Of a stretch of DNA of 27,356 bases, positions 18,266 to 27,356 are shown one piece after another; the first letter of the stretch is position 1, and each line of letters opens with the position of its first letter. The stretch is from an uncultured Candidatus Saccharibacteria bacterium. GTDB lineage: Bacteria; Patescibacteriota; Dojkabacteria; SC72. Under the pieces are notes generated by a model that was not told the origin of the DNA, searched no databases, and was given only the letters and a program-made list of their open reading frames with translations. Both the position numbers and the translations under genes were made by a program. The stretch is taken from the NCBI GenBank assembly GCA_964350615.1, contig CAYGKF010000001.1, forward strand, positions 1 to 27,356, read 5' to 3'.

Positions 18266-21200
18266 ATGAGAAAATTTTTCAAGAGGTTTCCTTTTTACAA
18301 GGTATTTGTTACCTTGTTTATTTCTTTGTACACACTACTACCTTCAGTACAGGCTGTGGGTGTTGTTGTGAAAGACTATGCATCTGAGGATGTTACTGTA
18401 GAGACAGAGATTGATACAGAGAATCAGGAGCTAGAAGTAGATACTAGCGAGGATATATTGGATGAGGGTATTTCTGATCCTGAATGGATTGTTAATCCAG
18501 AATTAGAAGAAGATACAGAAGAGGAAGTTGAAGAGGAGGCAGATGAGCCTCTTTTTGTTTATGAGGATGGGGTATATACAGTGTTTAATGTAATAGAGGG
18601 TGAGGAGTATGTTTATCCTAGTAATGATAACTTAAGGATAGAGTTTACGTCAGTTACAGAGGATGGAAATTTGGTTATTGAGAGGGTTGTGTTAACAGAG
18701 GAAGAGAAAGAAAAATTAAATACTTCTGATAATTATGGTTGGGATATTACTTCTAGTATGAGTAATGGTTCTTTTACATATAATCTTACACTTCCTAATA
18801 CATTAGGTAATGATGTAGAGGTTGTATATACAGAGGATGGAGAGAATTATAATAAGCTAGAGGCTATAGTTAATGAAGATGTAATACATATTTATGGGTT
18901 GGAGCATTTTACAACATTTGTAGTGGTTAGTCCTGGAAATGATCCTTCTAAACAAATAGATTGTGATGCTGTTAAACTTGGATCAACCACAGGGACAACT
19001 TGTTTTGATACCATTCAAGGAGCCATTAATGCCGCTAGTGGTGGAGAGACTATTTATGTTGGAGCAGGGACATATGAAGAACCAAATGGACTAAATATAA
19101 CAGAAAGCATAACAATTACAGGTTCCGGAGAAAATCAAACTATTGTAAAAATTAGTAGACCCTCCGGAGGATACGGTATACAAACTTCAAGTGATTTAAA
19201 TCTAGAATTAGTAATGAGAAATCTTAGTTTTGAAGCAGTATCCGGTGTTTCTAATTTCTTTTTCCACATTGCACACAACGCTTCCTTTACTTTAGAAAAC
19301 TCTACTGTAACAGGTATGGGTAGGAATTATTATTCATCTGGAGCACAAGAGTGGGGCAATACTGTTGGAGGTGTAGATATCATTAATGTAAAAAGTGCTT
19401 TTTTGAACAATGTTACTGTAAGAGAAACAAGTAGAAATGCTGTATCTTTTTCTGCAGTAAGAAATATCAATGTAGAAGATATAACTATAGAAGATAATGG
19501 AGCAAGAGAAGGTTCCGCAGGAATTGCTATATATAACAGGTCTGAGTACCTTCCAAATAATCCAGAATATATCTCTATAAATAGAGGTTTAATTACTGGT
19601 TCTCCTATAGGGATGAATTTAGGGGGTACAAAAACAGGAGTTGACTTAGGGGTAGTTTCTGGAGATGACATAAAGAATCTCTCTTTTGTAAATAATCAAG
19701 TACAGGCTATTGCTTCTCCAGATGAAGCTAAGACATTATTAGAAAATAACACATTTGATAAAGCTGTTGTTGTTAGAAAGAACCCAATAGTAGTACCTGT
19801 TATCTTTAGTAGTATACAGGATGCAATAGATGCTGCTGAAGATGGAGATACAATTTATGTAGACGTCGGTACTTATAATGAAAACATTGTTATCGACAAA
19901 GAACTTAGTCTTCAAGGTGAGGATAAAGATACAACTATTATAGATGGTGGAAAAAGCGGTAAAGTTGTGTCTATAGTTTCTGATAATGTATTGTTGTCTG
20001 GTTTTACAGTTATTAATTCAGGTAGTACGCCCCTTGAAGATGGGGCAATAGTACTTCAAGGTGCTAATCATTGTACGATTGAGGATAACATTGTAAGCAA
20101 TAACGGTGGTGTTGGAATCGGCTTACAACTATCAGATGGGAATACCATTCAAAATAACACCCTTGACAATAACAATATTGCCGGCATCGGTTTGCTTGGT
20201 TCGTCAAACAACACTGTTCAGTTGAATGAATCTAGAAATACACGCTCAATGTCGGGTCAATTTGGTTATGGTTTAATAATTGATAATTTTGAAGGGACTA
20301 ACCCACCTACAACTACTATTTTTTCAAAAAATAATGTAATTGGAAGTTCAGAGGTAGATTTAAACAATGGACCCAATACTTTTGCGGATAATGAAGGTGA
20401 TGGTATCTACATTGGTTGGGGATGTGATAATAATAGTATTGTTAATAACATCATTGATCGTAATGGTAATGATGGTATTTATTTATGGAAGTCAGGGACA
20501 AATCAAATTATTAATAATGAAGTAAGCGAGAATCAAGAAGCGGGTATTCAGCTTATGGCTAGCCCGAATAATACAATTTCAGGAAACACTATTGTGAACA
20601 GTAACATCGGTGTATGGCTTAGAAGTGGTTGGACTCAATATAAACCACATCAGGCGGATCATCTAGCTATGTCGGAGAACAATGACATTACTAATAATAA
20701 TATTTATGGCAACAGTGTTTTTGGAATAAAATATGAGCAAAATGATTACGAATATGATGATGGTATTTCCATTGACGCCACCCTAAACTGGTGGGGTCAT
20801 ATAACTGGTCCCTCTGGAGAAGGTAGTGGTCACGGAGATAAGGTAAGTACTAACGTTACATATCAAGAATGGTTATGTGAACCCTATAAGACCGGTTGGT
20901 ATAGTATAGATGGCTCTTGTGCTATGCGTGATATTGGTTTTGGTTATGGGAGTGGAATAAACGGGGACGTTTCAGATCCGGGTATGTGTAATGTTTATAC
21001 CAATGACACATCCCTCCCTGGAAATAAAGCTCTACAAATTCTACAATTCCATACTCTATCTGGAGCAGAATATTACATGATCCAAGGATATAGATGGAAT
21101 GGTTCAAAATGGCTAGCCTCTGGGACTCCATATGATCCCGAAGAGTATGCTAATGGGAAACCAAATGTAGAGTTTAGTATTGACAATGGAGTTGCAACAT

Positions 21201-23194
21201 ATAAGACAGGAGCAACCAATGAAGGAATTTATACCTATCAAGTAATGGCTTATTCATTAAATGATAACCTCATGGGACTAAGCAATAGAATAATATCCAA
21301 CAACTATGATAATGCTTGTAAATTTACTGTCGACAGAACTTCTCCTCTTGCACCAGAACTTATTTCTCCAGAAGAACCCTTCTATACACAAGGCGTTTAC
21401 TTTGAACAAAAATGGGAAAGTGTTGAAGATGCTGTTAAATATGAATACAACAGCTGCTACAATGATCCAGATGAAGATGATGGTTACTGTAATTTGAAAT
21501 ATCCGCAAACTTTTATTGGTAAAGAGAATACGACAAAGAAAGTAAATGCTGAACAACCAGACAGCCACTTCTGGTGGAGAGTAAGAGCACAAGATATAGC
21601 GGGAAACTGGAGTGAATGGAGTGAGGCTTGGGAAGTTATAATAGATAATACATCACCAATGGTAGAAATTACTTCACACACAAACGGACAATTGGTGCGA
21701 GGAACACAAACAGTACAAGGTATTGTTGAAGATTTTAACCTCTCACACTACTGGTTCGTAATCCATGATTCAAATGGTAAAAGAGTTGCAGGTCCTAATA
21801 TTGTTAAAAACTCTGGACCAATAGTAACACCTTCCTTTGAATGGAATACTAAAAATGTTGCAGATGGAATATATACTATTAAATTAGAAGCAAAAGACTT
21901 AGCAGATAATAAAGATAGTGGCTCTGTACATTGGGTAGGAGTTAGCGTAGACAACACCCCTCCAACTGTTTCTAACATATCCATAGAAAAGGATGGAAAC
22001 CCTGCTACTCAAATTAAAAAGGGTGACATTTTAATTATAACAGCAACAGTTACAGATGATTATGGTGGTGTAAAAGCTGTATCCACTGATTTTAGCTTTA
22101 ACAGTACTTACTCAAGTAGACCATCACCAACCAGTATTGGAATGAAACACCAAGGTTCAGGGATATACAAAGCTGAATACACAGTTCCAGAGACGTGGGA
22201 TACAGATCAGATATTTATAACTGTAGCTGCTAGAGATAAACTCGACAATTATTCTGGTTATAGGAATCTTGCAGAACAATTAATCGTAGACAACACCCCT
22301 CCCGTAACTGAAATACAGGGAGAACAAAGTTACACATATACCAATGAGGCAATCTTCATAGAAGGAATATCTACAGATGAAAATGGAGTAAGTCATGTAG
22401 ATCTCTACTACAGAGTTTCTGATTCCGAAGATCCTTGGACACCTATTGGAACATCTCCATTCATTAATAACCCTGCAGATGATTCTCCATTCAATTGGGA
22501 CTACAGTTGGACCCCAGACCAAGAAGGAACATATGACATTAAAGCATCTGCTACAGATATTGCAGGAAATGTTGAAGAAAGTGCCTACATATATGAAATT
22601 ACATATGATGAAACCAACCCTACCGTAACTCTACTTTCTCTAATCAATGGAATTTTACAGGACATACGAGCAGACGGAGGAATCTCAGGAGTTAAATCAA
22701 TAGAGGTTGGAATGAGTGATACTGGCCCATGGGAGACATATTCTTCAAATATGAACCTTAATACTTTTGTAGGTGGACAACCAGGTACATACACAGTATA
22801 TATTAGAATTGTAGACAACGCAGGAAACGAGACAATTCATGAAGTCACCTTCACCATACCATCACCTCCACCTACTACCGCAGAAGAAATCTTAGGTGCA
22901 ATAACAGGACCATTTACACCTCAACCTGCACAAGCTACAGGTATAGGAGGCTACCTCTTAGCTCAAACCATTGAAGAAGAAACAGAGGAAGAAGTAGAAG
23001 ATACTAAGGTTGAAGATACAGAAGATATTGAGGACGAAGATAAAGATGTAAGAGGTACAGAGGATGAAAATGATGTAGAAGAAGAACAAGAAAGTAGACC
23101 ATGGTGGATATATCCATTAATTATATTACCATTACTACTACTCTTCATAATACTTTGGAAAAGAAGAAAAGAAGAGGAAGAACCACAGTATTAA
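18266..23194 (+). CDS. Giant cell-surface protein: right-handed beta-helix (pectin-lyase/NosD-like) domains, Ig/FN3-like repeats and a C-terminal TM anchor
   Basis: Signal peptide; two TIQ.AI.AA..G.TIYV..GTY.E beta-helix caps; Asn-ladder repeats; five (V/I/Y)D.T.P Ig-linker motifs; RVRAQDIAGNWSEWS; acidic stalk; TM WWIYPLIILPLLLLFIILW followed by KRRK. Confidence 0.92.
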   Translation: MRKFFKRFPFYKVFVTLFISLYTLLPSVQAVGVVVKDYASEDVTVETEIDTENQELEVDTSEDILDEGISDPEWIVNPELEEDTEEEVEEEADEPLFVYEDGVYTVFNVIEGEEYVYPSNDNLRIEFTSVTEDGNLVIERVVLTEEEKEKLNTSDNYGWDITSSMSNGSFTYNLTLPNTLGNDVEVVYTEDGENYNKLEAIVNEDVIHIYGLEHFTTFVVVSPGNDPSKQIDCDAVKLGSTTGTTCFDTIQGAINAASGGETIYVGAGTYEEPNGLNITESITITGSGENQTIVKISRPSGGYGIQTSSDLNLELVMRNLSFEAVSGVSNFFFHIAHNASFTLENSTVTGMGRNYYSSGAQEWGNTVGGVDIINVKSAFLNNVTVRETSRNAVSFSAVRNINVEDITIEDNGAREGSAGIAIYNRSEYLPNNPEYISINRGLITGSPIGMNLGGTKTGVDLGVVSGDDIKNLSFVNNQVQAIASPDEAKTLLENNTFDKAVVVRKNPIVVPVIFSSIQDAIDAAEDGDTIYVDVGTYNENIVIDKELSLQGEDKDTTIIDGGKSGKVVSIVSDNVLLSGFTVINSGSTPLEDGAIVLQGANHCTIEDNIVSNNGGVGIGLQLSDGNTIQNNTLDNNNIAGIGLLGSSNNTVQLNESRNTRSMSGQFGYGLIIDNFEGTNPPTTTIFSKNNVIGSSEVDLNNGPNTFADNEGDGIYIGWGCDNNSIVNNIIDRNGNDGIYLWKSGTNQIINNEVSENQEAGIQLMASPNNTISGNTIVNSNIGVWLRSGWTQYKPHQADHLAMSENNDITNNNIYGNSVFGIKYEQNDYEYDDGISIDATLNWWGHITGPSGEGSGHGDKVSTNVTYQEWLCEPYKTGWYSIDGSCAMRDIGFGYGSGINGDVSDPGMCNVYTNDTSLPGNKALQILQFHTLSGAEYYMIQGYRWNGSKWLASGTPYDPEEYANGKPNVEFSIDNGVATYKTGATNEGIYTYQVMAYSLNDNLMGLSNRIISNNYDNACKFTVDRTSPLAPELISPEEPFYTQGVYFEQKWESVEDAVKYEYNSCYNDPDEDDGYCNLKYPQTFIGKENTTKKVNAEQPDSHFWWRVRAQDIAGNWSEWSEAWEVIIDNTSPMVEITSHTNGQLVRGTQTVQGIVEDFNLSHYWFVIHDSNGKRVAGPNIVKNSGPIVTPSFEWNTKNVADGIYTIKLEAKDLADNKDSGSVHWVGVSVDNTPPTVSNISIEKDGNPATQIKKGDILIITATVTDDYGGVKAVSTDFSFNSTYSSRPSPTSIGMKHQGSGIYKAEYTVPETWDTDQIFITVAARDKLDNYSGYRNLAEQLIVDNTPPVTEIQGEQSYTYTNEAIFIEGISTDENGVSHVDLYYRVSDSEDPWTPIGTSPFINNPADDSPFNWDYSWTPDQEGTYDIKASATDIAGNVEESAYIYEITYDETNPTVTLLSLINGILQDIRADGGISGVKSIEVGMSDTGPWETYSSNMNLNTFVGGQPGTYTVYIRIVDNAGNETIHEVTFTIPSPPPTTAEEILGAITGPFTPQPAQATGIGGYLLAQTIEEETEEEVEDTKVEDTEDIEDEDKDVRGTEDENDVEEEQESRPWWIYPLIILPLLLLFIILWKRRKEEEEPQY
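21946..22302 (+). repeat. Exact 18-bp direct repeat CGTAGACAACACCCCTCC (21946-21963 and 22285-22302)
   Basis: Both copies read directly; 339 bp apart and in frame (VDNTPP). Confidence 0.85.
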
Positions 23195-23214
23195 TATATA
23201 AAAAATACTGCCAG

Positions 23215-23247
23215 AAGAGACACAGGTAAAACTGTGTCTCTTTCTTT
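23215..23247 (+). terminator. Intrinsic terminator after the giant surface protein gene
   Basis: Perfect 11-bp stem AAGAGACACAG-GTAAAA-CTGTGTCTCTT followed by TCTTT. Confidence 0.85.
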
Positions 23248-23300
23248 ATGTAACCCCTTTAAAGCAAAAACTATGGGTTTATTTCAGTGCCTTTTTATTA

Positions 23301-23416
23301 TATAATACCCCTGTTTATACCTAACCCACAGGGATTTAGGAACAATATAAACGATCTTTAAAAATGCATGGTTCTTTACGCTTATCAACTCACCACTACT
23401 ATCACCCACGGAGGTG
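23301..23416 (+). promoter_or_regulatory. Promoter/leader of the orphan gene: TATAAT, hairpin and strong SD
   Basis: TATAAT 23301-23306; hairpin CCTAACCC-ACA-GGG(AT)TTAGG 23320-23340; GGAGGTG 23410-23416, 5 nt before ATG 23422. Confidence 0.55.
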
Positions 23417-23421
23417 TAAAA

Positions 23422-23934
23422 ATGTTTGTAAAAAACTTTTTCAAAAATCTTGGGGAGAAGATAAAAAACTTCCTTTCGAAAAGCAAAAATTTTTTCGAAA
23501 ACATTTGGAGAGAAACTAAAAACTTTTTCTCAAAACACAAGTCAGTATTCCAGGACATTCAAAAAGTATTACTTGTACTACTTTTGATTGCATTTGGGAT
23601 ACTCCAGCTTTACCAATACTCCGAAATCCTTCTCATGGGACTCGAAGAAAATTCTACTATTGGAATAGCCATTGCTATCACCGGATACTTCTTCGTTGCT
23701 GGATACACCTACTGGTTACTATTCCACAGGTCACATAATAGCGATTTTCGGAGCCTGGAGTACCATATAAGAGATATTAGACTGCAATTACAATTGTACA
23801 AAGCTAATCTCTCATCGAGGGATTTCCAGATACATAACATCGGACTTGACCAAAAAATGTTTAATTTGGACCTTCAACACCAACTCAGAAAAATTGAGCG
23901 AAAGCTTGATGAACTCCGAGTGAAGGAAAAATAA
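23422..23934 (+). CDS. Orphan 170-aa membrane protein (KNFF-repeat amphipathic N-terminus, two hydrophobic helices, C-terminal coiled coil)
   Basis: Start moved from 23368 to 23422 on the basis of the GGAGGTG SD; no family recognised. Confidence 0.75.
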   Translation: MFVKNFFKNLGEKIKNFLSKSKNFFENIWRETKNFFSKHKSVFQDIQKVLLVLLLIAFGILQLYQYSEILLMGLEENSTIGIAIAITGYFFVAGYTYWLLFHRSHNSDFRSLEYHIRDIRLQLQLYKANLSSRDFQIHNIGLDQKMFNLDLQHQLRKIERKLDELRVKEK

Positions 23935-24004
23935 CAACTCTTAAAAAGAACCCTGCATAAACTCTTCGGCTAAGTGTCTTAGTAAACCTTGCCTTGGAGA
24001 AGAA

Positions 24005-24058
24005 GGTTAGGGGAGATAAATTAGTGGTTTTTACCATTCTAATATATCTCCTCTAACT
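24005..24058 (+). other. Long RNA hairpin (23 bp) abutting the ribozyme
   Basis: 14 bp (two G-U) 24005-24018/24045-24058, A-A mismatch, 5 bp, TT bulge, TGGT/ACCA, TTTT loop; no U-tract follows on the + strand. Confidence 0.8.
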
Positions 24059-24059
24059 A

Positions 24060-24111
24060 GTAAGTCATTTCTAAGAAATCTGATGAGCTTTTGAAATAAA
24101 GCGAAACTTAC
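24060..24111 (+). ncRNA. Hammerhead ribozyme, type III
   Basis: GTAAGT-C-[ATTTC TAA GAAAT]-CTGATGA-[GCTTT TGAAAT AAAGC]-GAA-ACTTAC. All core nucleotides are present, with stems I (5 bp), II (5 bp) and III (6 bp); GUC cleavage triplet 24064-24066. Confidence 0.92.
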
Positions 24112-24114
24112 ACT

Positions 24115-24142
24115 TTGCATAACCAATCTTTTGAGCTACAAT
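24115..24142 (+). promoter_or_regulatory. Promoter TTGCAT-N16-TACAAT, 5 nt upstream of ATG 24148
   Basis: Seen directly; lies immediately downstream of the ribozyme. Confidence 0.55.
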
Positions 24143-24147
24143 AAACA

Positions 24148-24720
24148 ATGCTCAAAACCAAAATAGCAAGAATAATATCAGAAATATCCAACGGCTTTAT
24201 GACTATGATACTAACCCCTGTTATAGCTATCCTAGTATCACCCTTAGACACACTAAATAAAACAATCTTTATTCTAACATACACCCTCTCCCCTATCCTC
24301 CCCTACTTTGTACTTAAAAAAATGGGTAAGGTTACCGACTATGAATTCACCAACAGAAAAGAAAGACCCCCTTACTTTTCTACCATCACAATAATCTTTG
24401 GCATACTCTTTCTACTTCTTACTACCTTTAATTTAGAAATGTTAACTAAGGTAACCCTAAACCTCTTCTTAATCTCCTCTGTCATTACACTAATTACATT
24501 CTTTTGGAAAATATCTGGACACATGACATACTCCACCATACTCTTTACCACCTTACTATTCCTCTTCCCTAATACACCTGCCCTCTTCGCTCTCTTTCTT
24601 TTTACCCCCTTCATAGGATGGTCTAGAATAGCCCTTAAGAAACATGACTTAACTCAAGTAACCCTAGGAACCTTAATCCCTCTTACCATTTCCATTCTAA
24701 TTTACTGGGGTTTTTGGTAG
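24148..24720 (+). CDS. PAP2-superfamily-like integral membrane protein
   Basis: Multiple TM helices; WKISGH (motif 2-like) and WSRIALKKH (motif 3-like). Confidence 0.7.
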   Translation: MLKTKIARIISEISNGFMTMILTPVIAILVSPLDTLNKTIFILTYTLSPILPYFVLKKMGKVTDYEFTNRKERPPYFSTITIIFGILFLLLTTFNLEMLTKVTLNLFLISSVITLITFFWKISGHMTYSTILFTTLLFLFPNTPALFALFLFTPFIGWSRIALKKHDLTQVTLGTLIPLTISILIYWGFW

Positions 24721-24723
24721 AAT
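24715..24723 (+). promoter_or_regulatory. Extended -10 (TGG-TAGAAT) 8 nt upstream of the gatA ATG 24732
   Basis: TGGTAGAATACACAAGTATG seen directly. Confidence 0.55.
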
Positions 24724-24731
24724 ACACAAGT

Positions 24732-26171
24732 ATGGACTACACAATAACCCAACTTAGAGAAAAATTACTAAGCAAAAAAATCTCCTCAGAGGAAATAGTT
24801 AAGTACTATCTTAAAAGGATCAAAGAACTAAATCCTAAACTCAATGCATACATAACAGTATGCGAGGAAGAGTCACTTAAAAAAGCTAAAGAATTAGACA
24901 AAAACTTTAACAAACTCAAAGAAAACAAATTAGCAGGAGTACCAATATCTGTAAAAGACATCTTCTCTACCAAAGACATACTAACTACAGCAGCCTCACA
25001 CCTACTAGATGGTTACAAACCTGTGTACAACGCTACAGTAATAGAAAATATCCTAAAGGAAGAAGCCATAATAATTGGTAAAACAAACCTAGATGAATTC
25101 TGTCATGGATCTGGTACTGTTACATCCTACTACGGACCCACTAGAAACCCCTGGGACGTTAAAAGACTACCTGGAGGATCAAGTGGAGGCTCTGCAAGTG
25201 CCCTTGCTGCAGACATGTGTACAGCAAGTCTAGGAACAGAAACAGCAGGATCTTTGCGACTACCTGCATCATGGTGTGGCCTAGTTGGTTTTAAACCAAC
25301 ATACGGAAGAGTGTCAAGGTATGGTGTGTTAGCCATGGGTTCGTCTTTGGACTCTCCTGGACCCTTAACAAAAGATGTTAAAGATGCTGCATACATGTTA
25401 GAAATTTTAGCCGGTCATGACCCAAATGACTTCACCTCATCTAAATTAGAAGTACCTAACTACTTTGACAACCTAACAAGTAAAAATATTTCAGATCTTA
25501 AAGTTGCACTTCCCAAAGAATACTTAGAAATGGAATTAGAAGACGGCGTTAGAGAAAACCTTCTTAAAGGAGTAGACATATTAAGAAAATTAGGAGTAAC
25601 AGTAGAAGAAGTTAATGTATTAGACCCTAAGTACGGAATAGCCGTATACACAGTAACATGTAGAAGTGAGGTGTCCTCTAACCTTGCAAGATATGATGGT
25701 ACAAGGTATGGATTAGAGGGAAGTGAAAATGAAAATATTAAAATATATTATGAATCTACAAGGGGAGAAGGTTTTGGACAAGAAGCTAAAAGAAGAGTAA
25801 TGACAGGAACATTTTCTCTTTCGGCAGGTTATGCTGATGAATATTTTAAAAAGTCTGAACAGGTTAGACAATTAATTAAGGAAGATATGGATGAGGTATT
25901 AAAAAAGTATGATGCCATAGTAGCCCCTACTACTCCATCCATTGCATTTAAAGACAAGGACGCAGATAACCCACTATTTGGAGAATTAGCAGATGTATTA
26001 GCGGAGAGTAGCTCAGAGTCTGGATTACCTGGTATAACTATCCCCTCAGGTTTAAGTGAAGGTATGCCAACAGGTATACAGTTCATAGGTAATTATTTTG
26101 ATGAGCAAACTATTTTGAATTTAGCCTACGGTTTAGAGAAAGAATTAGGAAAACTTAAATTAAAGATCTAG
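24732..26171 (+). CDS. gatA: Asp-tRNA(Asn)/Glu-tRNA(Gln) amidotransferase subunit A
   Basis: LAGVPISVKD, GKTNLDEF, PGGSSGGSASA, LGTETAGSLRLPA, SNLARYDG.RYG, GFGQEAKRRVMTG. Start moved from 24714 to 24732. Confidence 0.95.
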   Translation: MDYTITQLREKLLSKKISSEEIVKYYLKRIKELNPKLNAYITVCEEESLKKAKELDKNFNKLKENKLAGVPISVKDIFSTKDILTTAASHLLDGYKPVYNATVIENILKEEAIIIGKTNLDEFCHGSGTVTSYYGPTRNPWDVKRLPGGSSGGSASALAADMCTASLGTETAGSLRLPASWCGLVGFKPTYGRVSRYGVLAMGSSLDSPGPLTKDVKDAAYMLEILAGHDPNDFTSSKLEVPNYFDNLTSKNISDLKVALPKEYLEMELEDGVRENLLKGVDILRKLGVTVEEVNVLDPKYGIAVYTVTCRSEVSSNLARYDGTRYGLEGSENENIKIYYESTRGEGFGQEAKRRVMTGTFSLSAGYADEYFKKSEQVRQLIKEDMDEVLKKYDAIVAPTTPSIAFKDKDADNPLFGELADVLAESSSESGLPGITIPSGLSEGMPTGIQFIGNYFDEQTILNLAYGLEKELGKLKLKI

Positions 26172-26223
26172 TTGCAAGAGAAAATTATCCTTTAAACCCT
26201 TCTGCCTTATCTTTTTTAAATTC

Positions 26224-26272
26224 TTGACAATAATATTTACCCATGTTATACCTATACCATAGGTGGGGGTAC
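26224..26272 (+). promoter_or_regulatory. Promoter (TTGACA-N17-TATACC) with a CsoR/RcnR-like operator candidate
   Basis: TTGACA 26224-26229; TATACC twice (26247-26258); ATACC-ATAGGT-GGGGGTAC at 26254-26272. Confidence 0.4.
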
Positions 26273-26298
26273 ACCCTTTAAGTTTTAATATTACAAAA

Positions 26299-26502
26299 AT
26301 GAAAACATACATGTATGATCCTGTGTGTGGGAAAAAGATGGTGGAAAGAGAGATATATGTAGAAATAGAAAAGGAAATAGATGGAACAATTCATAAGATA
26401 CTCCTGTGTTGTCCAGAATGTCATGAGAAATTTGAAAAAGATGAGATAAACTATATAAACCAGGCAATAGAAATGGAAAAAACAAAACCAATATTAAATT
26501 AG
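26299..26502 (+). CDS. YHS/TRASH-domain metal-binding protein
   Basis: DPVCGK...LCCPECHEKFEKD. Start is 26299 or 26311 rather than the GTG at 26263. Confidence 0.85.
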   Translation: MKTYMYDPVCGKKMVEREIYVEIEKEIDGTIHKILLCCPECHEKFEKDEINYINQAIEMEKTKPILN

Positions 26503-26553
26503 CTAGAGAATAAGATGCCCCAAGAAAGCAGTACATCAACCTCCAACATCCTG

Positions 26554-26559
26554 TATAAT
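26554..26559 (+). promoter_or_regulatory. -10 box TATAAT 8 nt upstream of ATG 26568
   Basis: Perfect TATAAT; in-frame stop upstream fixes the start at 26568. Confidence 0.55.
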
Positions 26560-26567
26560 ATATCTAT

Positions 26568-27356
26568 ATGGCCACTATCAGACAAAGATATGCCCCAAAT
26601 ATTAAGGATTACAAATACTTAATACACCCCCTTAAACAAAACGGACAAATAACAGAAGGATTCCTTTACAGTGAAGAAGAAAGAAATGTACATGGTTTCT
26701 ATTTTCACAAGGCTATAGACTACACATGTAATTGGAAAACCCCAGTATACGCTGCAGCTAGTGGTTATGCTGTAGCAGGCTACCATAGATTCACACTACT
26801 TAACGAAGACAACACTCCCAAGCTTTACGAAGGAAAACCACTCTCTTTGGGCCTTGGTTACTTTGTACAAATATATCATCCATACAAGATATGTAGAGTT
26901 AAAGGTGGAAGAATTACACAATACAGTCATCTCTCTAAATTTGGTAATGGGATATATGCAAAGACACACAAACCCCTAAGGGTTAATTACAAAAAAGAAA
27001 TTATTAAAAAAAATAATACAAGAAGAAAGTACAAAAAAAGTAAAGCCCTATTAGAAAAAGCAATAAAAGAAACACAGAAATTAACAAGAAAATATTGGTG
27101 GATTAAAAAACTGTATGGTTTTTCATTCTCAGAGGATATAAACAAAAAAGAATCTTATCTGTACACACCTAAGGAACTTAAAAACCTTCTTTCTCAAGGA
27201 GATAAATATGTAAAATGGGTTGAGCAAGGAGACATAATTGGGTATACGGGTGCTTCTGGAATAATACACGGAAGATTAAAGTATTGGGAGAACAAGAGAA
27301 AACCTAATATGAGGAAATTTGAGACCTGGGATGAAGCACACCTTCATTTTGAAGAA
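26568..27356 (+). CDS. M23-family metallopeptidase, 3'-partial (missing from the supplied ORF track)
   Basis: My translation is open to the window end: MATIRQRYAP...HKAIDY...PVYAAASG...GLGYFVQIYH...QYSHL...VEQGDIIGYTGASG...AHLHFEE (HxxxD and HxH zinc motifs). Confidence 0.9.
   Translation, partial: MATIRQRYAPNIKDYKYLIHPLKQNGQITEGFLYSEEERNVHGFYFHKAIDYTCNWKTPVYAAASGYAVAGYHRFTLLNEDNTPKLYEGKPLSLGLGYFVQIYHPYKICRVKGGRITQYSHLSKFGNGIYAKTHKPLRVNYKKEIIKKNNTRRKYKKSKALLEKAIKETQKLTRKYWWIKKLYGFSFSEDINKKESYLYTPKELKNLLSQGDKYVKWVEQGDIIGYTGASGIIHGRLKYWENKRKPNMRKFETWDEAHLHFEE

Follow-up and report, generated by a model that had tools for sequence, protein, structure and literature searches.

A type III hammerhead ribozyme between a conserved hairpin and a promoter in Candidatus Dojkabacteria: a candidate element of mRNA 3'-end definition

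The stretch of DNA analysed here, 27,356 nucleotides in length and referred to below as the window, is chromosomal and includes dnaE, uvrC, iPGM, gatA and a gene for a UvrD-like helicase. The host is a member of Candidatus Dojkabacteria, a lineage of the candidate phyla radiation (CPR) with a minimal genome, the available assembly comprising 716 kb in 105 contigs at 90% completeness, with a GC content of approximately 33%. A search for sequencing runs containing this sequence returned DNA metagenomes, which probably represent the source samples, and no RNA run. As listed in Table 1, a large surface protein gene and its terminator are followed by a small cassette encoding an orphan membrane protein, by a long hairpin and a hammerhead ribozyme, and by the promoter and genes of a PAP2-like/gatA unit. 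All genes around the ribozyme are co-directional.

Table 1. Coordinates of the features at the ribozyme locus, numbered from the first nucleotide of the window.
Feature	Position	Strand	Evidence and remarks
Beta-helix/Ig-like surface protein gene, 1642 aa	18266-23194	+	Protein domain search
Intrinsic terminator of the 1642-aa surface protein gene	23214-23243	+	Terminator scan: 12-bp stem, then T-run; marks where the orphan cassette begins
Likely -10 box TATAAT of the orphan cassette promoter	23291-23296	+	Putative, read from the sequence
Leader segment AUGCAUGGUUCUUU	23364-23377	+	Complementary to 23945-23958
Orphan membrane protein gene, 170 aa	23422-23934	+	ORF list; SD GGAGGTG upstream
3'-UTR segment AAAGAACCCUGCAU	23945-23958	+	Complementary to leader segment 23364-23377
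Conserved long hairpin directly 5' of the ribozyme	24006-24057	+	Outer stem GUUAGGGGAGA with UCUCCUCUAAC; no U-tract after it
Type III hammerhead ribozyme	24059-24112	+	RF00008, 57.6 bits, cut-off 48.5; covariation; predicted cleavage C24066/A24067
Stem III: GUAAGU with ACUUAC	24060-24065 with 24106-24111	+	Sequence read against RF00008 alignment
C17 (H17)	24066	+	Predicted cleavage between 24066 and 24067
Stem I: AUUUC with GAAAU, loop UAA	24067-24071 with 24075-24079	+	Sequence read against RF00008 alignment
Core CUGAUGA	24080-24086	+	Sequence read against RF00008 alignment
Stem II: GCUUU with AAAGC, loop UGAAAU	24087-24091 with 24098-24102	+	Sequence read against RF00008 alignment
GAA (G12 A13 A14)	24103-24105	+	Sequence read against RF00008 alignment
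A15.1-U16.1 pair	24106 with 24065	+	Sequence read against RF00008 alignment
PAP2-like/gatA promoter	24114-24142	+	Promoter scan; -35 TTTGCA 24114-24119, -10 TACAAT 24137-24142, 5 nt before ATG
Gene for a PAP2-like membrane phosphatase, 190 aa, first gene past the ribozyme	24148-24720	+	Pfam PF01569, weak, 24.2 bits, below cut-off
gatA (Glu-tRNA(Gln) amidotransferase A subunit, amidase family)	24732-26171	+	Pfam Amidase 440 bits; synteny; co-directional with PAP2-like gene

An Rfam cmscan of the whole window has returned two matches above the gathering score, a tRNA and the hammerhead family RF00008 (Hammerhead_3, type III). The latter covers model positions 1-54 of 54, with an E-value of 1.5e-10 and a posterior probability that is maximal along the full length, so that a scan with Rfam hammerhead models, which had been proposed in an earlier note made from the sequence, gives a result above the gathering score at the place expected. 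The same ribozyme, at an unchanged score (E 9.5e-13), is the only RF00008 match in the whole genome, and a permissive Rfam scan of 21000-27356 detected no second, degenerate hammerhead. The conserved core of a type III hammerhead (C3 U4 G5 A6 N7 G8 A9, G12 A13 A14, A15.1-U16.1 and H17) is complete in the window and is surrounded by three helices, of which stem III is open, with GUC as the cleavage triplet. The core-adjacent pairs G24087-C24102 (10.1-11.1) and A24067-U24079 (1.1-2.1) are intact. Every core and stem coordinate that the earlier note had assigned proved correct when read directly against the RF00008 alignment. Its description of loop 1 as unusually small was mistaken, as the consensus geometry of RF00008 itself consists of a 5-bp stem I with a 3-nt loop, together with UGAAAUA as loop 2, and is equalled by the window ribozyme. 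The thermodynamic fold of the isolated motif is unremarkable (z -0.85), with a minimum-energy fold that omits stem I, because this stem is made up of five weak, AU-rich pairs. Folding in the native context predicts stems II and III as well as the upstream hairpin. Stem I is backed by the comparison of related copies, presented below, and not by energy.

Matches to RF00008 at E <= 0.01 occur in 23 of 100 related genomes and in 21 of the 60 within the same family, and they divide into two classes, here termed class A (the window type) and class B. These were analysed separately; a joint MAFFT alignment misaligned the cores. Elsewhere in the genus, class A is present in four species (G008, G009, G010 and G012) with one to three copies each, three in G012 and two each in G010 and G008, these carriers having been deposited as Candidatus Dojkabacteria MAGs. 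The same four species were the only ones to carry the exact class A pattern among 185,579 species genomes, and no match was present among the 2.9 million viral contigs of IMG/VR. In metagenomes, the pattern was detected on about 17 Dojkabacteria-type contigs, as well as in unrelated GC-rich hammerheads of the same geometry. The further genomic copies for which the earlier note had suggested a search are thus lacking in the genome itself, with its one match, and present in four other species and on metagenome contigs. The same division applies to clustering, that is, several hammerheads flanking small genes, which is seen in the relatives and the metagenome contigs and not in the single-copy window genome.

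The unrelated hammerheads have an organization of their own. On a metagenome contig of 4820 nt (L078), GC-rich type III hammerheads lie at 177, 1887 and 3597, with an exact spacing of 1710 nt, while on another contig (L068) they lie at 54 and 2222 of the ribozyme strand, 2168 nt apart, with a loop geometry as in the window ribozyme. These repeats look like tandem copies of a larger retrozyme-like or satellite-like unit.

Twelve class A copies (10 distinct), taken from five species genomes and from metagenome contigs, have been compared. They are 95% identical, and their core is invariant except at N7, which is either U or C. Loop 1 varies (UAA, AUA, UUA or ACA), and loop 2 reads UGAAAY. In hammerheads, rapid cleavage at low Mg2+ requires a tertiary contact between these two loops. 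In the stems, 100% of the cells are paired across the 12 copies, and all changes are compensatory, with one pair affected per stem: C-G to G-C in stem I, U-A to C-G in stem II and G-C to A-U in stem III. Controls in which the 3' partners were slid gave 19-46% pairing and zero double changes. The copies occupy the same syntenic site, the gene order in all longer contigs being surface protein, orphan, ribozyme(s), PAP2-like and gatA. In G012, gatA (L030:7437-8791:-) is split into two ORFs of 352 and 94 aa, which may reflect a frameshift or an assembly error. The adjacent proteins diverge more than the ribozyme, with 41-48% identity for the orphan and 57-77% for the PAP2-like protein, whose orthologues occur in 10 of 13 genus genomes. 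This indicates that the ribozyme has been held much more tightly than the genes around it. The covariance model and the covariation bear out the earlier claim of a complete type III hammerhead, and on these sequence criteria the motif at 24059-24112 is confirmed as a genuine one and not a chance match.

The cassette upstream of the ribozyme is likely to have its own promoter, the TATAATAACCC context of its candidate -10 box being conserved in the leaders of relatives. The orphan protein had no usable match in Pfam, PHROGs, PADLOC or the protein Atlas. A longer reading frame starting at 23368 is probably not used, considering that orthologues of the protein begin at the MxKNFF position. The in-frame N-terminal extension peptide encoded by 23368-23421 (AYQLTTT..HGGV) seems to be conserved in G010, and a stop codon interrupts this stretch in both G012 and G008, which indicates that it is conserved as RNA, as part of the leader, and not as protein. 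The leader segment and the 3'-UTR segment just past the stop codon pair at 13 of 14 positions and would bracket the orphan ORF. Both are conserved in related cassettes with no covariation between them, the energy of the duplex is equalled by 10 of 300 shuffles, and the pairing is a lead that is suggestive only. Another leader motif, GCUUAUCA, is complementary to the ribozyme core and occurs in four cassettes; it was discounted, since its target is invariant and helices of similar length are common in this AU-rich RNA.

Two further elements adjoin the ribozyme. The hairpin on its 5' side, which ends one base before it, folds at -27.7 kcal/mol with a z-score of -6.8. Its outer stem of 11 bp is 99% paired in nine copies, with three pairs changed on both sides. 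The possibility that it is a dispersed repeat has been rejected given its single occurrence in the genome, and it does not have the form of an intrinsic terminator, as it is followed by UAGUAAGUC and the terminator scan reported nothing there. On the 3' side, the promoter of the PAP2-like/gatA unit begins 2 nt past the ribozyme. Each of the eleven genus members with a PAP2-like gene, six of which are ribozyme-free, has the -10 box of this promoter (TACAAT or TAGAAT) exactly 5 nt before the ATG, and no SD is present. Given this spacing and the missing SD, the PAP2-like mRNA is probably translated in leaderless form, and the arrangement suggests that the PAP2-like/gatA mRNA as a whole is leaderless or near-leaderless.

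Alignment of nine class A copies with their flanks has revealed three conserved blocks, namely hairpin, ribozyme and promoter, and little else. In relatives with several copies, a tandem unit of 457-506 nt begins with a promoter and an ORF for a small transmembrane (TM) protein of about 85 aa, after which come hairpin and ribozyme. The arrays therein follow the order surface protein, orphan, hairpin, ribozyme, then repeats of promoter, small ORF, hairpin and ribozyme, and finally promoter, PAP2-like and gatA. Inside the arrays, the promoter following a ribozyme takes the form of an extended -10 box, TGGTATAAT, after which come a leader with AAGGAG and the small ORF. The presence of a promoter after each ribozyme indicates that each ribozyme closes a transcription unit. 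In the six ribozyme-free members of the genus, the spacing between the PAP2 promoter and the ATG is unchanged, and five of the six have other genes upstream. In G013 (L058), about 120 nt upstream of the PAP2-like start, the hairpin is followed directly by the PAP2 promoter and the ribozyme is absent. This hairpin-only allele shows that the ribozyme, about 54 nt long, is a clean indel separating the hairpin from the promoter.

Class B has been detected in other genera of the family (L006-L024, for instance L009:1542-1671:- and L010:1386-1515:+) and in one member of the window genus, G004. Its architecture comprises a 6-bp stem I with a 7-nt loop and a stem II of GUCC with GGAC closed by UUAA, sometimes with an AT-rich insertion. 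Upstream of these ribozymes, with its stop codon 55-140 nt away, is the gene of a protein of 150-235 aa that evolves fast and is anchored at its N-terminus. On the other side, they adjoin the stop codon of a convergent gene for a family-2 (GT2) glycosyltransferase or overlap with it; in other loci, a bidirectional terminator follows. No co-directional gene was found downstream within the roughly 1.5 kb examined. With a downstream gene that is convergent or with no co-directional one, class B can act only on the upstream transcript, and this position in sister genera offers independent support, at the level of sequence, for an action of the window ribozyme on the transcript upstream of it.

Class B messages also carry a segment of 9-13 nt, about 10-45 nt past the stop codon, which is complementary to GCUAGAGUC(U), a stretch overlapping the 5' strand of stem III and the cleavage site. 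Segment and stem III covary across genera, GAUUCUAGC occurring with GCUAGAAUC, AGAUUCUCUAGGC with GCCUAGAGAAUCU, and AGAUCAAGCG with CGCUUGGUCU. That this competing helix points to conditional cleavage in the sister genera is well supported by such comparisons. Across the phylum, weaker RF00008 matches (28-46 bits, below the cut-off) with intact cores have been found in nine of about 145 sampled Patescibacteria genomes (L039-L047), mostly some 30-90 nt past the stop codon of a co-directional gene. One of the genomes, G176, holds two weaker copies 2.8 kb apart.

It is with moderate confidence that we regard the window ribozyme as a device that trims the orphan mRNA to a hairpin-protected 3' end and uncouples the PAP2-like/gatA unit from it. 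The ribozyme would form part of the 3' UTR of a self-contained cassette, with its promoter, SD, 170-aa orphan gene and structured 3' UTR. RNA polymerase would pass the hairpin, which has no U-tract, and then the ribozyme, which once folded would cut the read-through transcript after C24066. The upstream product is predicted to be an orphan mRNA that terminates with the hairpin, which is stable, and a tail of 9 nt bearing a 2',3'-cyclic phosphate; given the type III topology, it would keep only seven nucleotides of the ribozyme. PNPase is impeded by stable hairpins and by 3' termini other than a hydroxyl. Considering that the genome encodes PNPase, along with Rho, RNase J and RNase Y, and that an RNB-family exonuclease was not found in this 90%-complete genome, the orphan mRNA would be expected to resist the PNPase of the organism and the message to be stabilised. 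The downstream product would begin with a 5'-OH at stem I, carry the remaining ribozyme and be uncoupled from the orphan message, while the PAP2-like/gatA unit would be expressed from its own promoter. If its mRNA is leaderless, as seems probable, the read-through RNA would be poorly translated anyway. RNase J1 of Bacillus subtilis breaks down the 5'-OH RNA that the glmS ribozyme generates, and the read-through RNA may likewise be cleared, though its 5'-OH end is base-paired in a hairpin.

The earlier note had also held that the next gene has its own promoter and that the ribozyme most likely acts on the 3' region of the orphan transcript, as a terminator substitute or insulator. The promoter has been upheld by the -10 box conserved in eleven genus members, and the action on the upstream transcript, including insulation, gains support from the comparison of sequences, whereas the term terminator substitute is too strong, since the polymerase is not halted by cleavage and since, at this spot, one relative has only the hairpin and others have neither element. 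Some observations weigh against 3'-end trimming and uncoupling as such. Ordinary intrinsic terminators exist in the genome, such as that of the surface protein gene; upstream of the same promoter, the ribozyme is missing from six genus members, of which five have other genes there and one only the hairpin; and stem I is thermodynamically weak.

Other explanations of the locus have to be weighed against the same evidence. The ribozyme could instead serve the genes downstream, with processing of the read-through RNA giving the PAP2-like/gatA mRNA a defined, structured 5'-OH end as a form of operon punctuation, a role put forward for hammerhead clusters of prophages. Such a role would agree with the type III topology, by which nearly all of the ribozyme stays attached to the 5' end of the downstream RNA, with the co-directional genes and with the clustered bacterial hammerheads that lie before genes, for which polycistronic processing has been proposed (PMC3088659). 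It is nonetheless considered unlikely, as the PAP2-like gene keeps its private promoter even where the ribozyme is absent, an internal AUG lacking an SD would be poorly used on processed read-through RNA, and class B in sister genera, lying opposite a convergent gene, has no downstream gene that it could serve. Conditional cleavage has likewise been considered for the window itself, where an alternative pairing within the same mRNA would gate the ribozyme and 3'-end formation would depend on translation or on folding at the end of the message. The covarying class B segment that is complementary to the 5' strand of stem III provides a precedent, and the window cassette has its leader-tail pairing. 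For class A, however, no conserved competitor of stem III was found, the best candidates being equalled by 96-300 of 300 shuffles, and the leader-tail pairing, at a distance of about 100 nt from the ribozyme, does not covary and involves none of the ribozyme nucleotides, all of which makes gating in the window cassette quite unlikely.

The tandem occurrence of two to three ribozymes in relatives also recalls a selfish or mobile unit, whether a viroid- or retrozyme-like RNA circularised between two ribozymes or a phage-derived cassette, with no role for the host gene. The loop geometry equals the RF00008 consensus, which is typical of viroid and satellite hammerheads. Published clusters are often located in prophages (PMC3088659). 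Such an origin appears very unlikely for several reasons: the window and its genome hold one ribozyme only, the promoter after the preceding ribozyme makes each tandem unit a separate transcription unit, the site is fixed and syntenic in all carriers, the viral contigs of IMG/VR gave zero matches to the exact pattern, searches of PHROGs and PADLOC with the cassette proteins gave nothing significant, the window contains no integrase or reverse transcriptase, and an RtcB ligase was not found in the 90%-complete genome. A phage or defence origin was accordingly rejected on the PADLOC, IMG/VR and PHROGs results, and a circular RNA unit bounded by two ribozymes on the single genomic copy, the RtcB search and the promoters inside the relatives' repeats. 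One weak PHROGs match (E 0.0025), to a family of unknown function, was recorded for a small ORF of a relative. Lastly, the ribozyme might have lost its activity and persist as a relic, or might have been carried along neutrally when the cassette was duplicated, an idea prompted by its being dispensable in several relatives. This is scarcely plausible for an element with 95% identity across species whose adjacent proteins share 41-77%, in which N7, a free position, is the only one of the 13 core positions to vary and every stem substitution is compensated.

Trimming of the orphan mRNA and uncoupling of the PAP2-like/gatA unit may be one instance of a wider arrangement. As a tentative proposal, which we consider possible and no firmer than that, the type III hammerheads of the CPR, in Dojkabacteria and others, could represent a dedicated modular mRNA 3'-end device: a hairpin-plus-ribozyme block gained or lost between a gene and the next promoter, which would protect the mRNAs of small envelope proteins with a cyclic-phosphate end, insulate leaderless neighbours and, in sister genera, be made conditional by a covarying helix past the stop codon that sequesters stem III. 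If true, this would provide a general and testable cellular function for bacterial hammerheads. The ribozyme belongs to a known class and is not new, and the idea of mRNA processing has already been proposed. The present analysis extends well-supported hammerheads to Candidatus Dojkabacteria, a minimal-genome lineage. The locus is an unusually clean natural layout of gene, covarying hairpin, ribozyme and promoter, for which close relatives supply natural controls in the form of a hairpin without ribozyme, neither element, or tandem repeats of the unit. Because of this layout and these controls, the idea of 3'-end definition and protection is directly testable in reporter constructs.

Genomic hammerheads of bacteria have been known since 2010-2011, intergenic type III copies included (PMC3088659; PMC6155905). 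Clusters of them flank small non-conserved ORFs, and cleavage has been proven for three clusters (PMC3088659; PMC6155905). They have been proposed to process mRNAs and to be capable of acting in 3' UTRs (PMC3088659; PMC6765202), while their cellular role is still an open question (PMC6155905; PMC6765202). In the literature, no paper was found that meaningfully links hammerheads with the candidate phyla radiation, Patescibacteria or Dojkabacteria.

When compared to the viroid, satellite-RNA and genomic hammerheads that make up RF00008, the window ribozyme is alike in its full core, open stem III, GUC triplet and loop geometry. It differs in being single in a bacterial chromosome, positioned in an mRNA 3' UTR and not part of a rolling-circle replicon, in its AU-rich stems and in the lack of a second ribozyme of either polarity in its genome. 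The clustered bacterial and prophage hammerheads (Perreault et al., 2011, PMC3088659; de la Pena et al., 2017, PMC6155905) share with it an intergenic location on the gene strand beside small non-conserved ORFs, and the Dojkabacteria relatives likewise carry two to three copies flanking single small ORFs. The neighbours in the window are, by contrast, chromosomal genes (surface protein, PAP2-like, gatA, helicase, dnaE, uvrC) with no prophage or integrase context, and here a promoter follows and a conserved hairpin precedes, so that the ribozyme would close a transcription unit instead of dividing an operon.

An intrinsic terminator resembles the locus in that a stable hairpin ends the transcription unit directly before the next promoter, and differs from it in that no U-tract is present here and the end is proposed to arise by RNA self-cleavage and not by release of the polymerase. 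Self-cleaving ribozymes that determine mRNA ends from within 3' UTRs are the remaining point of comparison, examples being twister in bacterial 3'-UTR reporters and the discontinuous hammerhead of mammalian Clec2 genes, which removes the poly(A) signal by cleavage and lowers expression (PMC6765202). Like these, the window ribozyme is located between a stop codon and the normal transcript end, and its predicted cleavage would fix the 3' end of the message, whereas, unlike in Clec2, the mRNA would probably be protected, given the strong hairpin that immediately precedes the predicted cleavage site.
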